Virus record (IMG/VR): IMGVR_UViG_3300009537_000009
Coordinates: 1 to 60,801 of that record
DNA length: 60,801 bases
From: a virus
Taxonomy: Duplodnaviria; Caudoviricetes
Strand: one strand, 5' to 3'
The translations under genes and the position numbers were made by a program. This document shows, one piece after another, positions 13,435-21,844 of this stretch. Under the pieces are notes generated by a model. It searched no databases. It saw only the letters and a list, made by a program, of their open reading frames with translations, and was not told the origin of the DNA. The stretch's first letter is position 1. The number at the start of each line of letters is the position of its first letter.

Positions 13435-13908
13435 ATGTATTTTATGGGGAAGGAAGTGGCTAGTAGACCAAATAAGTATAGGAGAGCCTGGAATCAGGCA
13501 ACCATCCCACTGGTAAGAGAGTTGATGGAGAATGGTGGTTCTATCGTGGAGGCATGTAGAATCATGGGAATTAGCAGGGTGACCCACTATCGGTGGATGA
13601 AATGCCCTACAAAAGCAGCATATAGCCGCGCTATGAGTGATCTTCTGGATGCTTCCGAGGCTTGGTGGATGAGGCAGGGGAGAGAGAATGTTGGAAACAG
13701 AAGTTTTAATACCCAGTTATTCAATCTCAATATGGTCAATAGGTTCAAGTGGAACTCTGCCCAATCAGAACAGACGCGGAACGTCTCCGAGAAGAGGAAG
13801 GTTACTGTCGATATTCGTAAAGCTATCGACGAGTCGGAGGAAAAAAATGAGGAGCAACACGGAGAGGTTATTCCTTTGTTGAAGAAAGTAGTTGACAATG
13901 GGGAATAG
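13435..13908 (+). CDS. Terminase small subunit (putative)
   Basis: HTH GGSIVEACRIMGISRVTHYRW, SEAWW..GR, MVNRFKW; first rightward late gene. Confidence 0.75.
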   Translation: MYFMGKEVASRPNKYRRAWNQATIPLVRELMENGGSIVEACRIMGISRVTHYRWMKCPTKAAYSRAMSDLLDASEAWWMRQGRENVGNRSFNTQLFNLNMVNRFKWNSAQSEQTRNVSEKRKVTVDIRKAIDESEEKNEEQHGEVIPLLKKVVDNGE

Positions 13909-13919
13909 TGTGGTATAAT
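13892..13919 (+). promoter_or_regulatory. Consensus sigma70 promoter of the RNA island
   Basis: TTGACA 13892-13897, 16-nt spacer, TGgTATAAT ending 13919. Confidence 0.9.
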
Positions 13920-13926
13920 GGTCCCA

Positions 13927-14047
13927 GGTTGCGTAGTTTAATGGCAAAACACTAAAAACACTATTTCTACCTATTGCTTTCCAAGCCGCTTGAGATGGTT
14001 TATCATTCGCTAAATGAGTGATGCGGGTTCGATTCCCGCCGCAACCG
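13927..14047 (+). ncRNA. tRNA-like RNA with ~70-nt expanded anticodon region; Y RNA (YrlA)-like candidate
   Basis: Acceptor GGTTGCG/CGCAACC, D arm, T arm GCGGG-TTCGATT-CCCGC, no CCA; inner helix ACTATTTC/GAGATGGT and bulged-C helix TGCTT/AAGC(C)G. Confidence 0.65.
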
Positions 14048-14056
14048 ACTTATTAC

Positions 14057-14131
14057 GGGGGATGGGCAGAGCACCCGGAGAATCCTTGCAAGATTCTAGC
14101 CTGATCAGTTTGAGTCTGATACCCTCCACCA
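14057..14131 (+). tRNA. tRNA-Ala(TGC)
   Basis: GAATC-CTTGCAA-GATTC, G3:U70, ACCA end. Confidence 0.85.
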
Positions 14132-14200: not shown

Positions 14201-14276
14201 CGCTCTATCGTATAACGGCTATTATTCCGGACTCTTAATCCGTGTGATCCAGGTTCGAATCCTGGTGGGGCGACCA
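14201..14276 (+). tRNA. tRNA-Lys(CTT)
   Basis: CGGA-CTCTTAA-TCCG, TTCGAAT loop, CCA. Confidence 0.9.
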
Positions 14277-14290
14277 ATCATGGAGGAACT

Positions 14291-14572
14291 ATGCAGTACA
14301 GTTTTCTAATACTGCTTATAACATTTTTGATAATGTTAATCATTCTGATAGTGGATGATTGGCGGAAAACACTGCTTATAGAGGAATATAAGGTACTATC
14401 ACGAGTGTGGTCGCAAGAATCCTCACTGCTGGATGAGTACAGAAAGAAGTCGAGGGTATGGTTACATGGCGACTATCCTATTCTCAAGGATAGCGAGGTC
14501 ACCAAGGAAAGGCGAAGGGTTCTGCACAAGATGGCAGAAGATCGCAGGAAAGGAACTCATAATAGAGCGTAG
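14291..14572 (+). CDS. Membrane-anchored hypothetical protein
   Basis: GGAGG RBS, N-terminal hydrophobic helix; stop codon inside tRNA-Cys. Confidence 0.7.
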   Translation: MQYSFLILLITFLIMLIILIVDDWRKTLLIEEYKVLSRVWSQESSLLDEYRKKSRVWLHGDYPILKDSEVTKERRRVLHKMAEDRRKGTHNRA

Positions 14573-14637
14573 AGGTCGATTGGATAAACGGGTGTCTGCA
14601 AAACACTCACAAGCTGGTTCGATTCCAGTCTACGCTT
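14566..14637 (+). tRNA. tRNA-Cys(GCA)
   Basis: GGTGT-CTGCAAA-ACACT, U73; followed by CCG running into next tRNA. Confidence 0.85.
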
Positions 14638-14639
14638 CC

Positions 14640-14713
14640 GGTCTGTTAGTTTAGTGGTAAAACATTGGTCTGTCTAACCTTTGTCAAGGGTTCGATTCCC
14701 TTACAGATCGCCA
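14640..14713 (+). tRNA. tRNA-Asp(GTC)
   Basis: GGT-CTGTCTA-ACC, G73, CCA. Confidence 0.85.
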
Positions 14714-14719
14714 AATTAC

Positions 14720-14807
14720 GGGGGTGCTGGTATGCGCCTTATCAATTCTTGCTCTATTGAGCCGAAGATACAGGCTTATCTTGGTTCGACTCCAAGTACC
14801 CCCTCCT
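14720..14807 (+). tRNA. Atypical tRNA-like gene, undetermined anticodon (9-nt loop, long variable arm)
   Basis: Acceptor GGGGGTG/TACCCCC, T arm CTTGG-TTCGACT-CCAAG, TCAAT-TCTTGCTCT-ATTGA. Confidence 0.6.
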
Positions 14808-14811
14808 ATAT

Positions 14812-14901
14812 GGATTGTGCAAGTAAGTCAGCCTGGGGCTGAGAACGGCTGTAACCCGTTTCCTTATGGGCATGAGGTTCGATTCCTTCCACGATCCACC
14901 A
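14812..14901 (+). tRNA. tRNA-Tyr(GTA), atypical 8-bp acceptor
   Basis: AACGG-CTGTAAC-CCGTT; GGATTGTG/CACGATCC; A73, CCA. Confidence 0.8.
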
Positions 14902-14973
14902 CCCCTTGTGTTGGGGAAACAACCACCACTCCTAATGGGGGTATTACAGGTTCGAATCCTGTCGAGGGGTCCA
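14902..14973 (+). tRNA. tRNA-Arg(CCT)
   Basis: CCA-CTCCTAA-TGG; CCCCTTG/CGAGGGG; CCA. Confidence 0.8.
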
Positions 14974-14975
14974 AT

Positions 14976-15158
14976 ATGGAAAACAATTCAGGGTACGTCA
15001 AGGTTCTTGAAGAGAGGGCGGCAGAAGCCTCCATGTTCAAGAAAGAGTTGGAGTTTTTGAGATTTTTCTATGAAAGGTCGGATTTCAAGATGGCGATCAT
15101 GGAAGAGTATACCGCTCTAGGACACAAGGTTCCCTATGAATATGATGAGCCTAGCTGA
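14976..15158 (+). CDS. Small hypothetical protein (60 aa)
   Basis: ATG 14976; SD-like GAGGGG lies in tRNA-Arg 3' end; stop inside tRNA-Ile. Confidence 0.6.
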   Translation: MENNSGYVKVLEERAAEASMFKKELEFLRFFYERSDFKMAIMEEYTALGHKVPYEYDEPS

Positions 15159-15222
15159 CTGATAGTCAGAGTGCGCCTGATAAGCGTACTGAAGCAAGGT
15201 TTGATTCCTTGAGGCTCAACCA
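15146..15222 (+). tRNA. tRNA-Ile(GAT)
   Basis: TGCGC-CTGATAA-GCGTA; TGAGCCT/AGGCTCA; ACCA. Confidence 0.85.
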
Positions 15223-15223
15223 A

Positions 15224-15300
15224 GCCGTGGTGGTGGAATTGGGATACACGCCAGTCTTAGAAACTGGTTCTTGAGAGTTCGAGTCTCTCCTGCGGTACCA
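15224..15300 (+). tRNA. tRNA-Leu(TAG), short variable arm
   Basis: CCAGT-CTTAGAA-ACTGG; 5-nt variable region; ACCA. Confidence 0.9.
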
Positions 15301-15305
15301 AATTA

Positions 15306-15383
15306 GTGTCCCTGACGGGAATTGGAATACCTGCCGGGCTTAAAACCCGGTGTTTCTCAGTTCGAATCTGAGTGCGAGTACCA
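15306..15383 (+). tRNA. tRNA-Leu(TAA), short variable arm, poorly paired acceptor (possible pseudogene)
   Basis: CCGGG-CTTAAAA-CCCGG and intact T arm; GTGTCCC vs TGCGAGT pair poorly. Confidence 0.65.
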
Positions 15384-15397
15384 TTCATTGGTGATTT

Positions 15398-15781
15398 GTG
15401 AGACATACAAAGAAGGATTTTGAGATAGACTGGTTTTCGGGTAGTGGTGCTGGCGGACAACATAGAAACAAACACCAGAACTGTTGCCGGATTACTCACA
15501 AGCAAACCGGGTTGAGGGCGCAGTCCACGAGTCACAGGGAAAGGTGGAAGAACCAGCGCGACGCATTCAACCGTTTAGCTGGGATGATAATTGCATCTGA
15601 TGATAAAAAGGAAAGAAGGGATTCCAATCATATTGTCAGAACATACAACTATGTTCGGGGCATTGCCACTGACGGGGTTATCGAAAAACCCTTGCATCCC
15701 GTAATAAACGGTGATATAATGGAGTTTATTGTTAACTCCTTATCTGGCAATAGACCAGATAGATTCACGGGCAGAATGTAA
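15398..15781 (+). CDS. Truncated class I peptide chain release factor-like protein (GGQ peptidyl-tRNA hydrolase domain)
   Basis: SGSGAGGQHRNK...CRITHKQTG...VRTYNY...NGDIMEFI, matching the C-terminal half of RF1/RF2. Confidence 0.9.
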   Translation: MRHTKKDFEIDWFSGSGAGGQHRNKHQNCCRITHKQTGLRAQSTSHRERWKNQRDAFNRLAGMIIASDDKKERRDSNHIVRTYNYVRGIATDGVIEKPLHPVINGDIMEFIVNSLSGNRPDRFTGRM

Positions 15782-15785
15782 CAAT

Positions 15786-15861
15786 GTATGCATAGCTTAA
15801 CCGGCAAAGCCCAAGGATGTGACCCTTGAAGATTCAGGTTCGAAGCCTGATGTATACCCCA
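15786..15861 (+). tRNA. tRNA-His(GTG), no encoded G-1
   Basis: CAAGG-ATGTGAC-CCTTG; C73; base -1 is T. Confidence 0.85.
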
Positions 15862-15862
15862 A

Positions 15863-15938
15863 GCAGTCTAGGCCGATCCGGCGATGGTTCTAGTCTTCCA
15901 AACTAGTGAGGTGGGTTCGACTCCCACAGGCTGCTCCA
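15863..15938 (+). tRNA. tRNA-Gly(TCC)
   Basis: CTAGT-CTTCCAA-ACTAG; U73, CCA. Confidence 0.9.
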
Positions 15939-15942
15939 ATTT

Positions 15943-16013
15943 CCCCCTGCTAATGGATAGAGGCAGGTCTTCTAAACCGGTCCTTGTGGGTTCGAATCCC
16001 TCCTGGGGGTCCA
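15943..16013 (+). tRNA. tRNA-Arg(TCT)
   Basis: GGT-CTTCTAA-ACC; compact D arm; CCA. Confidence 0.75.
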
Positions 16014-16028
16014 TATACAGAGAAAAGA

Positions 16029-16718
16029 ATGGGATTACTAATACCGCCATCTGATGATCCAATGGATACTCAGTGGACTGACTACGAAGCATATATTCCG
16101 TGGTGGAAGGATACTCCTCCCATGGCGAGACATGGCCTCATTACAGGGGAAACACCCAAACATATAGGGCTTGGTTTCAGGAAAACCAACGATCCGAGTG
16201 AACCCTATGTTGAGAGGCTTTTGAATATTCGTGGATTAAATACAGACGGAACCTCGCCCCGTTTTATTGCGGAGGATAATGAGAGTCTGGCAAAGTTCGG
16301 AGCAACAACCCGAATCGAACCCGATAACGCATATGTGATAGGGTCTGCGTATAAAGAAGGTGAGACATATATGCACGAAGCGGCTCATTTTTTTTCGGGG
16401 GACGACAAGGTGGTCGAGAGATTGGAAGATATCGGGATGACCACTACCAAGGCCAAGTCGGGGGAAACGCTGTACAAATGGCCCGGAAAGGATGTATTCA
16501 TACCCGAAGCAGATACAGAACATATGTTGATTGATCTGGAAACTTTTCTCAGAAATGACAATACCCAAAACGCTATGCAAGCTTTTGAAAGGCTTATTGA
16601 ACTTTCCGGTAAACACGACATCAAACTATCGAAAGTGGTGGATGTGTACCACGACATAGTGGGCCTTCTATATGAGATATATCCGGACCTAAAAGAATTG
16701 TCGATGGATGGCCGGTAG
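16029..16718 (+). CDS. Hypothetical protein with HExxH motif
   Basis: MHEAAHF; probable start 16029; stop inside tRNA-Ile(TAT). Confidence 0.7.
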   Translation: MGLLIPPSDDPMDTQWTDYEAYIPWWKDTPPMARHGLITGETPKHIGLGFRKTNDPSEPYVERLLNIRGLNTDGTSPRFIAEDNESLAKFGATTRIEPDNAYVIGSAYKEGETYMHEAAHFFSGDDKVVERLEDIGMTTTKAKSGETLYKWPGKDVFIPEADTEHMLIDLETFLRNDNTQNAMQAFERLIELSGKHDIKLSKVVDVYHDIVGLLYEIYPDLKELSMDGR

Positions 16719-16775
16719 TCATAAGGCAGCTTATATCTGTCTTGGAGCAGGGTTCAACTCCCTGATCGACGACCA
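16699..16775 (+). tRNA. tRNA-Ile(TAT)
   Basis: GGCAG-CTTATAT-CTGTC; TGTCGAT/ATCGACG; ACCA. Confidence 0.85.
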
Positions 16776-16790
16776 TATGTGGAGAGGACG

Positions 16791-16949
16791 ATGAAAGAAC
16801 TGATACAAGAGAGTGAGGAGGGGTTGAGATTCGTACCCCTCGAAGATTTGCTTGAGGCCCTTCATATGCTTAGAGATGACTTCATGCAAATGAAACGCGG
16901 GTACCATGTTACCATAGAGAAATGGATCAAGGAGCTTGATGATGTCTGA
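16791..16949 (+). CDS. Small hypothetical protein (52 aa)
   Basis: GGAGAGG RBS, MKELIQESEEG... Confidence 0.55.
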   Translation: MKELIQESEEGLRFVPLEDLLEALHMLRDDFMQMKRGYHVTIEKWIKELDDV

Positions 16950-17154
16950 GAGGCCACCTGTACTTTGTGGTATCGATGGGGTGTATCATCCCGCTTTTTA
17001 CCGATGTAATCAATTTCGGTTTCGGGGATACGGGATTACGATGATATGTTGCGCCGTATGCAAGGAAGGCTCCCATATCGAGGATGATACAGAAAACTCA
17101 GCTCGTAGGCCGGATATCGAGGCGGCATTCTTACAAAATGCCAGTAGAGGGTGA
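16942..17154 (+). CDS. Small Cys-rich protein
   Basis: AGGAG RBS; CCAVC; 3' end overlaps tRNA-Val. Confidence 0.5.
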   Translation: MSERPPVLCGIDGVYHPAFYRCNQFRFRGYGITMICCAVCKEGSHIEDDTENSARRPDIEAAFLQNASRG

Positions 17155-17174
17155 GATTCCTTCACGAGCTACCA
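17100..17174 (+). tRNA. tRNA-Val(TAC)
   Basis: GCATT-CTTACAA-AATGC; AGCTCGT/ACGAGCT; atypical T loop TGAGATT. Confidence 0.85.
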
Positions 17175-17180
17175 AATAAT

Positions 17181-17259
17181 GGGGATGAGATGGCTCGACC
17201 GATCTTAAAACCTTACGGAAAGGATCGGGACCAGGGATCAAAACCCTGCATCTCCACCA
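17181..17259 (+). ncRNA. Minimal tmRNA-like RNA: tRNA-like domain only, no mRNA-like domain
   Basis: GGGGATG/CATCTCC with G3:U70 and A73-CCA; stemless D loop AGATGGCTCGA; 8-bp P2-like CCGATCTT/AGGATCGG; GAC then CAGGG-ATCAAAA-CCCTG. Confidence 0.8.
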
Positions 17260-17264
17260 TATTT

Positions 17265-17336
17265 TCCCTGTCTGCGGACTCAGTGTGACGGCTACGAACC
17301 GAAATCAGGTCAGTTCAACTCTGGCACAGGGAACCA
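17265..17336 (+). tRNA. tRNA-Arg(ACG)
   Basis: CGG-CTACGAA-CCG; TCCCTGT/ACAGGGA; ACCA. Confidence 0.8.
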
Positions 17337-17337
17337 A

Positions 17338-17411
17338 AGGCCGATAGTTCAACGGCAGAACACTGGGCTTTGAACCCGGTAGTCCTGGTTCGAATCCAGG
17401 TTGGCCTTCCA
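17338..17411 (+). tRNA. tRNA-Gln(TTG)
   Basis: CTGGG-CTTTGAA-CCCGG; canonical arms. Confidence 0.92.
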
Positions 17412-17417
17412 TACATA

Positions 17418-17504
17418 GCTGGCTTGGCAGAGCGGACGAATGCAGGGGTTTTGTAAGCCTCAGTCGAAAGACCATCGTGGGTTCGAATCCTACAGTTAGC
17501 TCCA
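17418..17504 (+). tRNA. tRNA-Thr(TGT) with long variable arm
   Basis: GGGGT-TTTGTAA-GCCTC; GTC-GAAA-GAC arm; G1-C72, C2-G71. Confidence 0.8.
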
Positions 17505-17518
17505 ACCTGAGAGAGAAG

Positions 17519-18166
17519 ATGAGAAAGGGAATATTACTTGTAGTGTTTTTGCTGGGTGGTTGCGGTGTGATGACCGATCAGGGCAGGGTGTCCAAAGAGG
17601 TTTATCGGGCCGAAACGGCACAAAAGCTGTTCGACTCCGCCCAAAAAGCTGATGATGCTTTCGCAAAGGAAAACCCCGTGAGCGGAGTACCGTCATACTG
17701 TAACGGTTCTGTAACAGATGCCCAAGCCGTGGTTTGCGGGATGGCTCAAGCGAACGCTAATCTCTCAGTAGCCCTTGTAAACGCAAACAGGAAAGCCTCT
17801 GTCGCTTATGCTTCACAGATTCTATCTACACAGGCACAAGAAAGAATTGCATTCAAGGACCGTCTGATGAATTTCTTCGGTATCGTGTATTCGACCGAGA
17901 GGGGCTCAAGGAGCCGTTCTACGGGTGATGGGACCAGGGTGGTCATCAATGGGCCAAACGCCCGAGGTAGCGGAGAAGGAGGGGCTTCTGCTGGCAGTCA
18001 GGACGTAAGCCTGAATATCGGTAATGCAAATCAGGTATCTTCGGATGGAAGGACTGGTTTTGCCAACAGGAATAGTACGGTTGACAACCACGACCAATCC
18101 GAGGTTGTGTTCGAACCTGTCCTCGAACCGGTGGTTGACATACCCGAACTACCTGTGATAGAATAA
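17519..18166 (+). CDS. Lipoprotein
   Basis: MRKGILLVVFLLGGC lipobox; probable start 17519. Confidence 0.75.
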   Translation: MRKGILLVVFLLGGCGVMTDQGRVSKEVYRAETAQKLFDSAQKADDAFAKENPVSGVPSYCNGSVTDAQAVVCGMAQANANLSVALVNANRKASVAYASQILSTQAQERIAFKDRLMNFFGIVYSTERGSRSRSTGDGTRVVINGPNARGSGEGGASAGSQDVSLNIGNANQVSSDGRTGFANRNSTVDNHDQSEVVFEPVLEPVVDIPELPVIE

Positions 18167-18173
18167 AGAGTTT

Positions 18174-18248
18174 GGACTTCTGGTGTAGGTGGCCGCACGA
18201 CAGTTTGAAGCACTGTAGGATCAGGCTCGATTCCTGGGGGGTCCACCA
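18174..18248 (+). tRNA. tRNA-Phe(GAA)
   Basis: ACAGT-TTGAAGC-ACTGT; ACCA. Confidence 0.85.
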
Positions 18249-18250
18249 AA

Positions 18251-18325
18251 GCACCGTAAGGCGAATGGCGAGCCAGTAGTCCTTCAAACTATTGTGAGTG
18301 GGTTCGATCCCCACACGGTGTACCA
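18251..18325 (+). tRNA. tRNA-Glu(TTC), C at position 33
   Basis: GTAGT-CCTTCAA-ACTAT; GCACCGT/ACGGTGT; ACCA. Confidence 0.75.
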
Positions 18326-18326
18326 C

Positions 18327-18404
18327 TGTGGGATAGCAATCCGGGTGATCGCAGACGGCTGTTAACCGTCAAGGAGATGAGTTCGAGTCTCATTCCCACA
18401 GCCA
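18327..18404 (+). tRNA. tRNA-Asn(GTT)
   Basis: GACGG-CTGTTAA-CCGTC; G73, CCA. Confidence 0.9.
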
Positions 18405-18409
18405 TTTCA

Positions 18410-18494
18410 GGAAGGTAGGGTGCTGGGCACAAAAACGGTTTGAACCCGTTCCCACTCTTTGGGGTGATCGTTCGATTCGGATTACCTTCCGCCA
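18410..18494 (+). tRNA. tRNA-Ser(TGA), 8/4-type fold
   Basis: AACGG-TTTGAAC-CCGTT; GGAAGGTA/TACCTTCC; long variable arm; G73. Confidence 0.85.
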
Positions 18495-18495
18495 C

Positions 18496-18581
18496 AGTAG
18501 GTTGAGTGCTGGGCACACGACAGTTTGCTAAACTGCCCCACTCCGAAGGGGGTGACAGTTCGATTCTGTAACCTACTGCCA
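18496..18581 (+). tRNA. tRNA-Ser(GCT), 8/4 fold
   Basis: AGTAGGTT/AACCTACT 8 bp, T stem ACAG/CTGT 4 bp; loop TTGCTAA; G73. Confidence 0.85.
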
Positions 18582-18584
18582 TAT

Positions 18585-18659
18585 CAGAGACGACGAGGCT
18601 GGGTCATCTCCGTCCCTTGGAAGGACTGAAGCGCAGTTCGATTCTGCGGTCTCTGACCA
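18585..18659 (+). tRNA. tRNA-Pro(TGG)
   Basis: GTCC-CTTGGAA-GGAC; C1-G72, A73. Confidence 0.85.
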
Positions 18660-18660
18660 G

Positions 18661-18735
18661 AGGGGTGAAACATTTAAGGTGATGTCTCGGTCTTTTAAAC
18701 CGGAAAACAGGGTTCAAGTCCCTGCGCCCCCACCA
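18661..18735 (+). tRNA. tRNA-Lys(TTT)
   Basis: TCGGT-CTTTTAA-ACCGG; ACCA. Confidence 0.85.
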
Positions 18736-18739
18736 GTCA

Positions 18740-18748
18740 TGGTATAAT
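18740..18748 (+). promoter_or_regulatory. Extended -10 promoter
   Basis: TGGTATAAT immediately upstream of the large structured region. Confidence 0.65.
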
Positions 18749-18752
18749 AGAG

Positions 18753-19139
18753 ATAGGCACTCCCTGCCTTAAAATTATGAGCGGCTCACCGTCCGTGTCG
18801 GGAAGAAAAGCGGTTTTAATGAGCGGGTCTTTGACCTCGGACCAGTCCTCCAGAGCGCAAGCAAGTTAGGCGGGGGGCGATAAACAGGGCTATACTGTAA
18901 CACAGTCAGTGACTACGACCAGCTTCGGCTGCTTGGCCTTACGGCCTTGAAGGTAGTGCAGCGTCTCGCGGTACGATAACACGCACCTGATATACGCTCA
19001 CCTTGTGACGGTAACTAGACAACCATAAAGAGTATTCTCTCCCTGTGGTGGAATTCTCGGATCATATGCTGGACTAATATCCCGGCCTATAAACCCCGAC
19101 CAGTCTGGTTACAGTGAAGGAGGTCCGAGCTATGCCTAT
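18753..19139 (+). ncRNA. Large structured non-coding RNA, unclassified (~385 nt)
   Basis: No long ORF; nested long-range helices 18753-59/19133-39, 18836-43/19122-29, 18894-901/19108-15; cUUCGg hairpin 18920-18931. Confidence 0.7.
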
Positions 19140-19170
19140 TTGTGTTGTATTTTTACAACAGGGGGAGTTG

Positions 19171-19353
19171 ATGCAGTGTAAGTGCGGTGGAAGCACGGTT
19201 GACCGTGTGTCTGTCCGAAAGAAGGGGAAGTACAAACTTCTCTATGTCCATTGTGTCGAGTGTACCAGGGTAGGTAATTGGTTGTACCTTGAAGATAACA
19301 AGTTGGCTGCCTCCGGTGAGGATGCCAGAAAGAAATATAGCGCGGTGGTGTAA
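19171..19353 (+). CDS. Small zinc-ribbon protein
   Basis: GGGAG RBS; MQCKCGG...CVEC; stop inside tRNA-Met. Confidence 0.65.
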   Translation: MQCKCGGSTVDRVSVRKKGKYKLLYVHCVECTRVGNWLYLEDNKLAASGEDARKKYSAVV

Positions 19354-19413
19354 AGGCTAACATCTTGGACTCATATTCCTCGGCTGAGAGTTCGATTCTC
19401 TCCTGCGCTACCA
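19339..19413 (+). tRNA. tRNA-Met(CAT) (elongator Met or Ile2 not resolved)
   Basis: GGA-CTCATAT-TCC; AGCGCGG/CTGCGCT; ACCA. Confidence 0.8.
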
Positions 19414-19414
19414 T

Positions 19415-19491
19415 GAGCCGTCATGTTCCAAGGCTGGCGATGAAGTCTCCAAAACTCTATGTGTGGGGTTCGATTCCCTAGCGGCTCGCCA
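19415..19491 (+). tRNA. tRNA-Trp(CCA)
   Basis: AGT-CTCCAAA-ACT; G73, CCA. Confidence 0.8.
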
Positions 19492-19509
19492 ATTACTAAA
19501 GGGAATTAC

Positions 19510-20181
19510 ATGAATGTAATCTTATGTTCCGGAGTGATGCGTTCCGGATCGACGTGGTGTTTTAACGTATTAAGAGGTTTGTGTGGTCTGGTCGCTGAGT
19601 GTCTCTCTAAACCGTTCTACGCCTCTTACCTGGAGGGGGATGCTTTAGACAAGTTCCTCCTTTCCGATGCCGCTTTAAGGCCTGGGGTGAGTGTATTCAA
19701 GACGCACCTCATAGGGCCGCGAGCTGCCCACTTAGCCAGAAGCGGCATCATCAAGAATATTTGTACGTTGCGAGACCCCAGGGACTGCGTAGCCTCTCGT
19801 CAGGAGTTTAAGTCGGAAAGCCTGTCCGACTCCATCGGGCTTGTTAGGGCATCATATACTACCGCGATGGGACTCGATGATGCTGCGCTGTTCCTGGACT
19901 TTGAGAATATTAAAACATCCCCGGTATCTGTCATTCTCGATATGATGGAGTATTTGGGGATAGATTTCGAGAGTGCTGATGAGGTGGCTGGCATTCTCTC
20001 GGAAGAGTTTTCCTTGGAAAAAATGAAGAAGATGGAACCGAATAATGGAATTGATCCGCTAACGGAAATTCACGAGAACCATTTTCACGGGGGAGAAAGC
20101 GGGAAGGGCGTATCTCTTGGTCTGGATAAGAAGCTGGAAGACCTTCTTGACTTTTATCGAAAGGTGACAAATGACTCCTAA
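19510..20181 (+). CDS. Sulfotransferase-domain protein
   Basis: GVMRSGSTW (5'-PAPS loop), KTH, RDPRD..AS (3'-PB); probable start 19510. Confidence 0.8.
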   Translation: MNVILCSGVMRSGSTWCFNVLRGLCGLVAECLSKPFYASYLEGDALDKFLLSDAALRPGVSVFKTHLIGPRAAHLARSGIIKNICTLRDPRDCVASRQEFKSESLSDSIGLVRASYTTAMGLDDAALFLDFENIKTSPVSVILDMMEYLGIDFESADEVAGILSEEFSLEKMKKMEPNNGIDPLTEIHENHFHGGESGKGVSLGLDKKLEDLLDFYRKVTNDS

Positions 20182-21844
20182 GTGGGGGGTTCGTATCGAG
20201 CCTGTTGTTCGGGATCGGTCACCCAATGCGGATGCTGCTGAAACCTTTTGGGAATGGGTTAGGGATAAGGATTATCGAAGGGCTGTTATGGCTTACGAGG
20301 AAATCCACAAAGACCCAAACATGGATAATTCATTTATTCGCACATTGGGGCAGTTGGATAGATTTTACCTCGCTGCATTTTTGTGCAACAGGGTCGATCT
20401 TCTCCACCCATGGCTATACGATAGAGCAAGGGAAGTTCAATACGATTGTGATGAGCACTTGGATTTGTGGGCAAGATTCCATTATAAAAGCACTCTTGTG
20501 ACACAGTTCGGCGGGATACAGGAAATTCTAAAAAACCCGAACGTCACGATTGCAATTTTATCCTATTCCACTAAGCAAGCCAAGCCCTTTCTAAGGGCTA
20601 TTATGCAGGTGTTGGAAACCACAAGAAGTTTACATGAGTTGTATCCTGATATCTTGTGGGACAAACCAAAAGTACAAGCCCCAAAATGGAGCGAGAATGA
20701 GGGGATCAGGGTAAAGAGAACCAGAAATTCTCCAGAAGAAACCATACAGGCGTTTGGTTTAACGGACGGGCAGCCAACCGGGTATCACTTTCAGTTGCAG
20801 ATATATGATGATGTTGTTGTGCGCTCCTCTGTGACCACCCCCGATCAGATTAAGAACACGACAGAGCAGTGGGAGTTGTCACTCAACCTTGGCGATACGC
20901 ATAACCCTAGAAGACAGTATGTTGGCACGAGGTATGCGTATGGGGATACTTATGGGACTATCATGCAACGGGCTGCTGTAATTCCTAGAATCTATCCAGC
21001 TACCCATAACGGAAAGATAGATGGTTATCCTGTCTTTCTTTCTAAGGATAGATTTGATGAGATTGTAAAAACAACTTCGCAGTACACGGTTGCTTGTCAA
21101 CAACTCCTGAACCCACTTGAGGGAACGGATATTTCTTTCAAGCAGGAGTACTGGCGAGAATACGAAATACGCCCATTCACTCTGAATGTTTATATTACGG
21201 TAGACCCCGCAAACTCCAAAAAGAAGGGTTCCAACCGCACCGCAATTTCCGTGGTCGGGGTTGATCAGGCATTTAATAAATATCTTCTTGACGGCATGTG
21301 TCACAAGATGACCCTCTCAGAACGATGGTCTAATTTAAAGAAGGTCAGAGAGAGGTGGATTCGTATGCCTGGAGTAAGGGAAGTCAGGGTGGGGTATGAG
21401 AGATATGGAGCACAATCCGATATCGAGCACTATAAAGAGATGATGAAAATCGAGGGCGTATCGTTTCCTATTTACGAAGTGGCGTGGGTAGGGGGGGAGA
21501 ATCAGGGACAGTCAAAGGTGGACAGGGTGCAAAGACTGGAGCCTGATTTCAGGAATGGTTCTTTCTTTTGGCCATACCAAACCGACGCCAAGAATCTTAC
21601 CAAGCTTCAGAGAACCATGTCCATGTCCGGTCAAGCTTTTCTCGTGGCAAAAAAGATCATCAATATAGACGAGGATGGCAAGACGTATAACCTTGTTAAT
21701 TGGGTGAAATCCAACGAGTATGACTTGTTCCCATCCATCCATCCAGATTTTCTCGATGCCATGTCAAGAATTTACGACATGGATATGAGGCCACCAAAGA
21801 ATTATGTAGGCCCAATGGAGCCCTCAAAAGAGGAGAGTTATTAA
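20171..21844 (+). CDS. Terminase large subunit
   Basis: ARFHYKST Walker A-like, TGYHFQLQIYDD Walker B, GTRY, nuclease VDPA and HPDFLDA. Confidence 0.9.
   Translation: MTPKWGVRIEPVVRDRSPNADAAETFWEWVRDKDYRRAVMAYEEIHKDPNMDNSFIRTLGQLDRFYLAAFLCNRVDLLHPWLYDRAREVQYDCDEHLDLWARFHYKSTLVTQFGGIQEILKNPNVTIAILSYSTKQAKPFLRAIMQVLETTRSLHELYPDILWDKPKVQAPKWSENEGIRVKRTRNSPEETIQAFGLTDGQPTGYHFQLQIYDDVVVRSSVTTPDQIKNTTEQWELSLNLGDTHNPRRQYVGTRYAYGDTYGTIMQRAAVIPRIYPATHNGKIDGYPVFLSKDRFDEIVKTTSQYTVACQQLLNPLEGTDISFKQEYWREYEIRPFTLNVYITVDPANSKKKGSNRTAISVVGVDQAFNKYLLDGMCHKMTLSERWSNLKKVRERWIRMPGVREVRVGYERYGAQSDIEHYKEMMKIEGVSFPIYEVAWVGGENQGQSKVDRVQRLEPDFRNGSFFWPYQTDAKNLTKLQRTMSMSGQAFLVAKKIINIDEDGKTYNLVNWVKSNEYDLFPSIHPDFLDAMSRIYDMDMRPPKNYVGPMEPSKEESY

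Follow-up and report, generated by a model that had tools for sequence, protein, structure and literature searches.

The stretch of DNA analysed here (the window) is a 60.8-kb record of an uncultured virus of the Caudoviricetes (IMG/VR record IMGVR_UViG_3300009537_000009, positions 1 to 60,801), which looks complete (CheckV 100%). A 5.6-kb block of tRNA genes lies in it between the small- and large-terminase genes. The array comprises about 27–29 tRNAs and tRNA-like RNAs in total, with seven credible small protein genes interspersed, all on one strand. At several junctions within the array, an open reading frame (ORF) runs into the tRNA gene that follows, and its stop codon lies inside that tRNA. 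An initial annotation of the stretch had listed five such stops and had proposed that maturation of the tRNAs would create non-stop mRNAs. The small ORFs of the array are the following, the overlapping ones being given first:

14291-14572, plus strand: ORF1, 93 codons; its TAG at 14570-72 occupies positions 5-7 of tRNA-Cys (overlap 7 nt).
14976-15158, plus strand: ORF2, 60 codons; its TGA at 15156-58 occupies positions 11-13 of tRNA-Ile(GAU) (overlap 13 nt).
16029-16718, plus strand: ORF3, 229 codons; its TAG at 16716-18 occupies positions 18-20 of tRNA-Ile(UAU) (overlap 20 nt).
16942-17154, plus strand: ORF4, doubtful, 70 codons; its TGA is at 17152-54 (overlap of 55 nt with tRNA-Val).
19132-19353, plus strand: ORF5, 73 codons; its TAA at 19351-53 occupies positions 13-15 of tRNA-Met (overlap 15 nt).
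15398-15781, plus strand: the GGQ gene, 127 codons; it stops 4 nt before tRNA-His, without overlap.
17519-18166, plus strand: a lipoprotein-like gene, its lipobox read by eye; it stops 7 nt before tRNA-Phe.
16791-16949, plus strand: a 52-codon ORF that ends 150 nt before tRNA-Val.

All five stop codons and the corresponding tRNA starts were found by ARAGORN, in the ORF list and in the sequence exactly where the initial annotation had placed them, and the GGQ and lipoprotein genes indeed stop before their tRNAs. In array order, the ORF-to-tRNA distances are thus −7, −13, +4, −20, +150 (−55 if ORF4 is real), +7, and −15 nt.

A bare count of such junctions says little. Without any coding filter, the last ORF ends inside the tRNA in six of eight sense cases in the window and in four of six antisense ones, and the figures for 80 other phage loci are 45/187 and 49/183, respectively. 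Since overlaps appear in antisense as often as in sense, the unfiltered count was rejected as uninformative; were it not for four coding ORFs, the pattern would have no meaning. The evidence for coding comes from a codon-usage log-odds score, for which the window’s long ORFs from beyond the array served as the training set and 124 known-spurious ORFs as the comparison. By this measure ORF1 (0.094), ORF2 (0.267), ORF3 (0.170), and ORF5 (0.111) look coding, as only 0–1% of the spurious ORFs score that high; the 52-codon ORF scores 0.198. ORF4 reaches 0.005, a value attained by 12% of the spurious ORFs, and its part upstream of the tRNA falls to −0.045 (28%). An AAGGAG motif precedes its ATG by 7 nt, and a terminator-like hairpin followed by a T run (16977-16993) lies inside it. 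ORF4 thus has roughly one chance in three of being a real gene, and the credible gene of the gap before tRNA-Val is the 52-codon ORF at 16791-16949. The earlier count of five overlapping junctions out of seven therefore has to be lowered to four of seven credible ones, because ORF4 looks non-coding. The gene caller of the source made ORF1, ORF2, ORF3, ORF4, the 52-codon ORF, and the lipoprotein gene with identical ends, while ORF5 is absent from its calls, as is the GGQ gene with the starts tried.

The proteins encoded by the overlapping ORFs have few relatives. ORF1, ORF2, and ORF3 are singletons or near-orphans, and ORF1, ORF2, the 52-codon ORF, and the lipoprotein gene each form a singleton cluster in the gene calls of the source. 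No match was found for ORF1–ORF4 in Pfam or PHROG, nor for ORF1–ORF3 in NCBIfam, and across these three collections none of the ORFs matches a nuclease (GIY-YIG and HNH included) or any other named family. The N-terminus of ORF1 is hydrophobic, and its ribosome-binding site is GGAGGA. In the case of ORF2, the ribosome-binding motif GAGGGG sits in the 3′ acceptor strand of tRNA-Arg(CCU), only 2 nt separating this tRNA from the ATG. ORF5 is preceded by an AAGGAGG ribosome-binding site, contains a CxC...CxxC motif, and weakly matches phrog_29406 (E = 8.5e-4), a PHROG family of unknown function. ORF3 bears an HExxH motif (HEAAH), which is conserved in P0003, its sole homologue of the same length (33% identity, E = 3.7e-19). 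Further matches lie in the interior of proteins of 794–2114 residues, and ORF3 may represent one domain of the large polyvalent proteins of phages. Structural leads for ORF3 in the ESM Atlas, all under the threshold, point to Zn-peptidase-like folds. The C-terminus of ORF3 extends 13 residues beyond the end of P0003, and its last 5–6 codons are tRNA sequence. As judged by comparison with this single homologue, such a tail is what a run-on after the loss of an original stop codon would look like.

The non-stop proposal presupposes that the overlapped tRNAs are genuine and are cut. ARAGORN at default settings finds 21 tRNAs in the window, all on the plus strand, and those adjoining the ORFs under discussion are:

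14201-14276, plus strand: tRNA-Lys(CUU), found by ARAGORN and Rfam, 14 nt upstream of ORF1.
14566-14639, plus strand: tRNA-Cys(GCA), found by ARAGORN; 40.9 bits with the Rfam tRNA model.
14902-14973, plus strand: tRNA-Arg(CCU), found by ARAGORN; Rfam 34.9 bits.
15146-15222, plus strand: tRNA-Ile(GAU), found by ARAGORN; atypical D hairpin and UUUGAUU T loop; cloverleaf at minimum free energy, z-score −5.0.
15786-15861, plus strand: tRNA-His(GUG), found by ARAGORN and Rfam.
16699-16775, plus strand: tRNA-Ile(UAU), found by ARAGORN; cloverleaf at minimum free energy.
17100-17174, plus strand: tRNA-Val(UAC), found by ARAGORN; atypical UGAGAUU T loop; cloverleaf at minimum free energy.
Start at 18174, plus strand: tRNA-Phe, just 3′ of a promoter-like site (P2, see below).
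19339-19413, plus strand: tRNA-Met(CAU), found by ARAGORN; Rfam 46.5 bits.

All five overlapped tRNAs are called as cloverleaves by ARAGORN, two of them pass the Rfam gathering score, and three, Ile(GAU), Ile(UAU), and Val, escape this model also when a 2.6-kb search is relaxed to E ≤ 10. This blindness to three of five overlapped tRNAs, compared with three of the 16 others, raises the question of whether the junctions are functional at all. The Ile(GAU), Ile(UAU), and Val tRNAs might be decaying or specialised and poorly cut, or ORF4 and ORF5 might be untranslated, in which case there would be few or no non-stop messages. The non-canonical T loops, the non-coding-like ORF4, and the absence of ORF5 from the gene calls of the source point in this direction. 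However, RNase P recognises the acceptor stem, the T stem, and CCA, and all of these are present in the three tRNAs, which at minimum free energy fold as full cloverleaves with acceptor stems of 7 bp and whose CCA is encoded. The acceptor stem is formed at minimum free energy in four of the five overlapped tRNAs (Ile-GAU, Ile-UAU, Val, and Cys, the last with a non-standard centre), the overlapped tRNA-Cys and tRNA-Met are canonical, and ORF1, ORF2, ORF3, and ORF5 have coding-like codon usage. We consider a loss of function in some of these tRNAs or ORFs an improbable explanation. The predicted folds of Ile(GAU), Ile(UAU), and Val have the shape of tRNAs with some atypical features, and the cleavage of these RNAs by RNase P is putative. 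A tRNA-Ile with the anticodon UAU is unusual for bacteria-type systems; here it coexists in one array with tRNA-Ile(GAU), and both escape the Rfam tRNA model.

The spacing of the array gives a hint of how the overlaps arose. Between tRNAs (n = 17), the spacers measure 0–10 nt, with a single exception of 69 nt. From a tRNA to the following ORF (n = 7) they measure 14, 2, 14, 15, 15, 14, and 18 nt; the 14- or 15-nt spacers, found in five of the seven cases (14277-14290, 15384-15397, 16014-16028, 16776-16790, and 17505-17518), each contain a purine-rich ribosome-binding motif. A distance of 14–15 nt looks like a lower packing limit 5′ of the genes, leaving just room for a ribosome-binding site. 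Overlaps between genes are common elsewhere in the genome too: among 75 co-directional junctions 21 or more overlap, the sulfotransferase and large terminase (TerL) genes downstream of the array overlap by 11 nt, and credible ORFs and tRNAs cover 90.5% of the window. A recoded stop codon was rejected, as no suppressor anticodon occurs among the tRNAs and this coverage is obtained with standard-code ORFs and tRNAs.

Because the spacers are at their limit (0–10 nt between tRNAs and mostly 14–15 nt from tRNA to ORF), packing is the best explanation of the overlaps. In our opinion, they probably represent a tolerated by-product of tight packing, a C-terminal run-on, and not a dedicated switch; the simple compaction that the initial annotation had named as an alternative fits the spacer pattern. 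On the 5′ side of a gene, packing would halt at about 14–15 nt, where the ribosome-binding site needs its room, while on the 3′ side there would be no lower limit, and four genes with unconstrained tails would run to the first in-frame stop, 7–20 nt into the tRNA. That the tails look unconstrained follows from the 13-residue run-on of ORF3 and from the near-orphan status of ORF1, ORF2, and ORF3.

As to the fate of the messages, each ORF would be co-transcribed with its tRNA, and the first ribosomes would reach the stop codon on the nascent, still uncut primary transcript. The cut by RNase P at position +1 of the tRNA would then deprive the message of its stop and of about 2–6 sense codons, and the cut message would become an ordinary substrate for the rescue systems of the host. 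The net effect would be a low or short-lived expression of four accessory genes, for which neither the phage GGQ protein nor the tRNA-like RNA described below would be needed. To this extent, the idea that tRNA maturation would create non-stop mRNAs is a reasonable one, and it is in print for T4 segB (PMC2330249) and for bacterial overlaps (PMC4131195).

Transcription signals in the array, identified here as consensus or pattern matches (which applies to promoters, terminators, and ribosome-binding sites alike), are as follows:

13892-13919, plus strand: P1, promoter-like, sigma-70-type; TTGACA, 16 nt, TG-n-TATAAT; 12/12 matches.
18135-18164, plus strand: P2, promoter-like; TTGACA, 18 nt, TAGAAT; 11/12 matches; just before tRNA-Phe.
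18740-18748, plus strand: a second copy of the 9-mer TGGTATAAT, extended −10-like, upstream of ORF5 and tRNA-Met.

The transcript start predicted for P1 falls at about the first base of a 121-nt tRNA-like RNA, which is also the first base of the array. The 9-mer TGGTATAAT is present twice in the window, at 13911 and 18740, against 0.35 copies expected, and the copy at 18740 is a possible candidate promoter for ORF5, tRNA-Met, and tRNA-Trp. The consensus scan revealed no terminator-like site between ORF1, ORF2, ORF3, or ORF5 and the respective tRNA. Promoter-like sites at the head of tRNA runs, together with the lack of an intervening terminator, are consistent with ORF–tRNA co-transcription.

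To see how common such junctions are, the codon-usage filter was applied to a panel of 20 usable tRNA arrays. These come from 80 viral loci with a gene for a GGQ protein homologue; the loci are partly related to each other, which makes P values from this panel rough. In the panel, 17 of 82 credible junctions have the stop codon in the next tRNA (2/12 in the antisense control). The commonest overlap is 10 nt (8/17), corresponding to a stop at tRNA positions 8-10, and no such case is present in the window. After removal of duplicate ORFs and GGQ genes, 16/69 junctions overlap, or roughly one in five. In bacteria, overlaps of this kind are very rare: of 115,660 valid t(m)RNA genes in PMC4131195, 250 have a coding sequence that overlaps from upstream, and when every same-orientation overlap is counted (379), about one mRNA in 15,000 is affected. 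Set against the rates in phage arrays, this rarity indicates that the overlap is typical of phage arrays and not of genomes generally.

Several observations nevertheless weigh against tight packing as the whole explanation. The rate in the window, four of 6–7 junctions, stands at the top of the range when compared with the 16/69 of the panel (binomial P = 0.03–0.055, a post hoc value, as the window was picked for its overlaps). The credible overlaps are all ≤20 nt, although only 36% of the 81 tRNA-by-frame combinations stop that early, and 0.36 to the fourth power gives about 0.017 for four short overlaps. Long intrusions into tRNAs thus seem to be selected against, which is predicted by packing and regulation alike. 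The GGQ genes, in turn, spare their stops: a stop inside a tRNA is found in 0/9 distinct GGQ genes and in 16/46 other tight junctions (Fisher P = 0.046, uncorrected for relatedness). This can be explained equally well by a conserved C-terminus that is not replaceable with tRNA-encoded residues, and it is also predicted by the switch idea discussed below. Finally, no array-bearing relative of the window was found in the viral contigs, metagenome contigs, phage records, and protein collections searched.

One of the closest known counterparts of the window is the tRNA gene region of bacteriophage T5. According to our own reading of its annotation (GenBank AY543070), 12 coding sequences lie directly before a tRNA, and four of the 12 end inside it, by 6–24 nt, while T5.065 abuts its tRNA. 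The overlapping pairs are as follows:

T5.057 and tRNA-Met, overlap 6 nt.
hegD and tRNA-Gln2, overlap 23 nt.
hegC and tRNA-Ser2, overlap 14 nt.
T5.069 and tRNA-Asn, overlap 24 nt.

Like the window, T5 has a single-strand tRNA array with small ORFs between the tRNAs and promoters inside the array. Its record also annotates “tRNA-like stable RNAs” of 103–144 nt, of unknown function, which the 121-nt RNA of the window resembles in general description only. Unlike the window, where the ORFs lack a nuclease match, two of the four overlapping T5 genes encode HNH endonucleases; moreover, no RF-1 domain is encoded anywhere in the T5 genome, whereas the window has the GGQ gene. The occurrence of the same layout in T5, which does without an RF-1 domain, and in 20 other phage arrays supports packing as its origin.

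Animal mitochondria offer a more distant parallel. Their mRNAs are directly flanked by tRNAs, whose excision defines the mRNA ends, and incomplete stop codons are completed by polyadenylation; in contrast, the stop codons in the window are complete but form part of the tRNA, so that cleavage would remove them.

In T4, the gene segB lies within the tRNA cluster and is co-transcribed with the tRNAs, thus resembling the ORFs of the window. Brok-Volchanskaya et al. (2008, PMC2330249) proposed that, as tRNA-Arg matures, the segB message is severed after its last sense codon and just ahead of the stop, that expression falls as a result, and that a like control acts on the T5 F-Tfl nucleases. segB, however, is a single case and encodes a GIY-YIG homing endonuclease, whereas the window has four non-nuclease ORFs with stops 5–20 nt deep in the tRNA. 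In bacteria, Hudson, Lau and Williams (2014, PMC4131195) discuss non-stop mRNAs arising from coding sequence/t(m)RNA overlaps, including smpB-ssrA in Carsonella. As in the window, the upstream coding sequence on the same strand ends in the t(m)RNA gene and maturation would remove its stop; unlike these very rare bacterial cases, the array of the window shows the overlap at four of about 28 tRNAs. Hence, the layout and its probable non-stop consequence have already been described for T5 and T4, and the window is an unusually dense example of them.

These precedents make one consider whether the overlaps were selected as a negative control, in which a stop inside the tRNA lets RNase P render the message non-stop, after which the host tmRNA tags the product and the latter is degraded. 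Such a control, of the segB type, would restrict potentially harmful proteins (a membrane protein, an HExxH protein) to a short early burst; we regard it as unlikely, though it deserves attention. PMC2330249 puts it forward as a hypothesis, for segB and for the F-Tfl nucleases of T5, the overlaps of the window are short and more frequent than those of other arrays, and the hydrophobic N-terminus of ORF1 and the conserved HExxH of ORF3 would suit proteins of this sort. However, the four ORFs have no match to nucleases or to other families in Pfam, PHROG, or NCBIfam (ORF5 having only its weak hit to a PHROG family of unknown function), their stops occupy differing tRNA positions (5-7, 11-13, 18-20, and 13-15) with no shared design, and the GGQ gene, the lipoprotein gene, and the 52-codon ORF end without overlap.

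The initial annotation had gone further, linking the overlaps to a “TLD-only tmRNA” and to the GGQ factor as a possible expression switch. The RNA it had in mind is probably the element that opens the array:

13927-14047, plus strand: 121-nt tRNA-like RNA; Rfam tRNA (RF00005) 48 bits with a 63-nt insert; fold z-score −2.93.

Its acceptor, D, and T arms are intact, and the 63-nt insert forms two hairpins in place of the anticodon arm. The hallmarks of tmRNA are a G3-U70 acceptor pair (alanine identity), a discriminator A, and a CCA end (see PMC4131195). The acceptor of the 121-nt RNA, GGUUGCG/CGCAACC, gives U3-A70 instead of G3-U70 and is followed by GAC and not ACCA, with no encoded CCA; the RNA also keeps a normal D arm with its D stem. 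No tmRNA was detected in the window by the ARAGORN tmRNA search at default settings or by Rfam at the gathering score, and no tmRNA family appears among the Rfam matches listed at 13927-14047, a listing in which lower-scoring matches of the same clan are hidden. On sequence grounds, then, the element is a tRNA-like RNA that fails tmRNA identity. A phage-encoded relative in a loose sense is the tmRNA of mycobacteriophage DS6A, described in PMC4131195 as little more than a tRNA-like domain; such molecules can inhibit tmRNA. Both RNAs are tRNA-like and lack a normal anticodon arm, while the 121-nt RNA differs in having no G3-U70, in keeping the D stem, and in matching tRNA models.

The GGQ protein is a stand-alone RF-1 domain (Pfam PF00472, E = 2.9e-16, 59.9 bits) with the catalytic motif GSGAGGQHRNK in its translation. 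Its best models are those of RF1: it aligns with positions 213-337 of 347 of NF001859, reaching the RF1 C-terminus, and matches RF1 chains in the PDB at E of about 3e-9. Against the ArfB model NF006718 it scores 22.5 bits and thus fails the cut-off of 100. In ArfB (YaeJ/ICT1-type) a basic C-terminal helix enters the empty mRNA channel (PMC7641280 and PMC7427801). The last 27 residues of the phage protein contain about four acidic and three basic ones, so its tail is not basic, and the protein resembles domain 3 of RF1 and not ArfB.

GGQ genes are frequent companions of tRNAs. The gene of the window has 105 relatives in viral contigs, and 80 loci were kept (L010-L089) with 67 distinct genes; a tRNA lies within 5 kb in 36 of the 67, and 20 have five or more tRNAs. 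Among the 17 homologues with a same-strand tRNA ≤50 nt downstream, 16 stop 0–10 nt before the tRNA and one overlaps it, and the upstream tRNA typically ends 10–15 nt before the start of the homologue. Thus, tRNA-GGQ-tRNA is a recurrent cassette in viral contigs. No paper linking phage-encoded ArfB or GGQ factors to tRNA arrays was found in the literature searches.

A rescue-coupled switch would make use of these components in the following way: the GGQ protein, perhaps with the 121-nt RNA, would free the chains from cut messages without SsrA tagging, which we hold to be highly improbable, and the four proteins would accumulate only once the phage factor is made, an equally remote prospect. In favour of this idea, the GGQ gene belongs to this array and is probably co-transcribed with the ORFs, its homologues recur in tRNA arrays and nearly always stop just before a closely following tRNA, and the reduced tmRNA of DS6A exists and belongs to a class of molecules able to inhibit tmRNA (PMC4131195). 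Against it, T5 has the overlaps but no RF-1 domain, the GGQ protein is without the ArfB hallmark, and the 121-nt RNA, with its U3-A70 pair, D stem, and missing CCA, matches tRNA and not tmRNA models, and ARAGORN at default settings and Rfam at the gathering score find no tmRNA in the window. For the same reasons, the link proposed by the initial annotation is not supported. An even more elaborate version would turn the array into a self-contained circuit of non-stop messages, untagged release by the GGQ protein, and a 121-nt RNA possibly distracting the host tmRNA-SmpB; there is very little to recommend it. In this reading, to which hardly any weight can be given, four orphan proteins would be made only in the presence of the rescue factor; the GGQ gene itself spares its stop, as nine of nine distinct homologues in other arrays do.

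If packing alone is at work, the window is one more, unusually dense, case of the T5/T4 layout, and the proposal that tRNA maturation limits the expression of array genes has been in print since 2008 (PMC2330249, for segB). The practical message is twofold: annotation pipelines would do well to leave such ORFs untrimmed at the tRNA edge, and an ORF/tRNA overlap alone should not count as regulation. What merits notice is the contrast between the GGQ genes, which nearly always stop outside the tRNA, and the other array ORFs, of which about one in five stops inside.

Relaxed ARAGORN settings, which gave the five tRNA candidates, together with Rfam and folding, added seven tRNA or tRNA-like elements to the array:

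14057-14131: tRNA-Ala candidate.
About 15308-15383: tRNA-Leu(UAA) candidate.
15942-16013: tRNA-Arg(UCU) candidate.
17265-17336: tRNA-Arg(ACG) candidate.
19415-19491: tRNA-Trp candidate.
About 14817-14895 and about 17181-17259: two tRNA-like elements.

All seven escaped ARAGORN at default settings; most have a paired acceptor stem followed by CCA, and the cores of several are degenerate. With these elements and the ORFs, nearly all the leftover gaps of the array are filled.

Upstream of the tRNA block, a gene for a helix-turn-helix protein (13435-13908) has weak small-terminase-like matches; downstream, there is the sulfotransferase gene and then the TerL gene (20171-21844). A TerL search of viral contigs gave two loci. 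The first, L002, the closest relative, is a 4.2-kb contig with 79% TerL identity and the same sulfotransferase-TerL pair, but a comparison of its positions 1-1107 with window 19339-20181 shows a different gene of 128 codons and no tRNA upstream of the pair. The second, L003, has 44% TerL identity and no tRNAs. Since L002 has the sulfotransferase-TerL pair without tRNAs upstream, the terminase genes may have been separated by the tRNA array only recently, through insertion. Against metagenome contigs, TerL gave six loci, namely the short contig of L002 and five matches at 25% identity. Searches of viral contigs with ORF3, ORF5, and P0003 yielded no relative, word-based protein searches with ORF3, ORF5, and ORF4 returned the window’s own proteins or nothing, and megablast of the array against phage records gave no match.

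One gap of the array, a 396-nt stretch (18736-19131), has no credible ORF, tRNA, or fold signal (z-score 0.01). A permuted-tmRNA match within it was dismissed as weak (21.6 bits against a cut-off of 47). Headed by the second copy of TGGTATAAT, this stretch may serve as a long leader ahead of ORF5, tRNA-Met, and tRNA-Trp.

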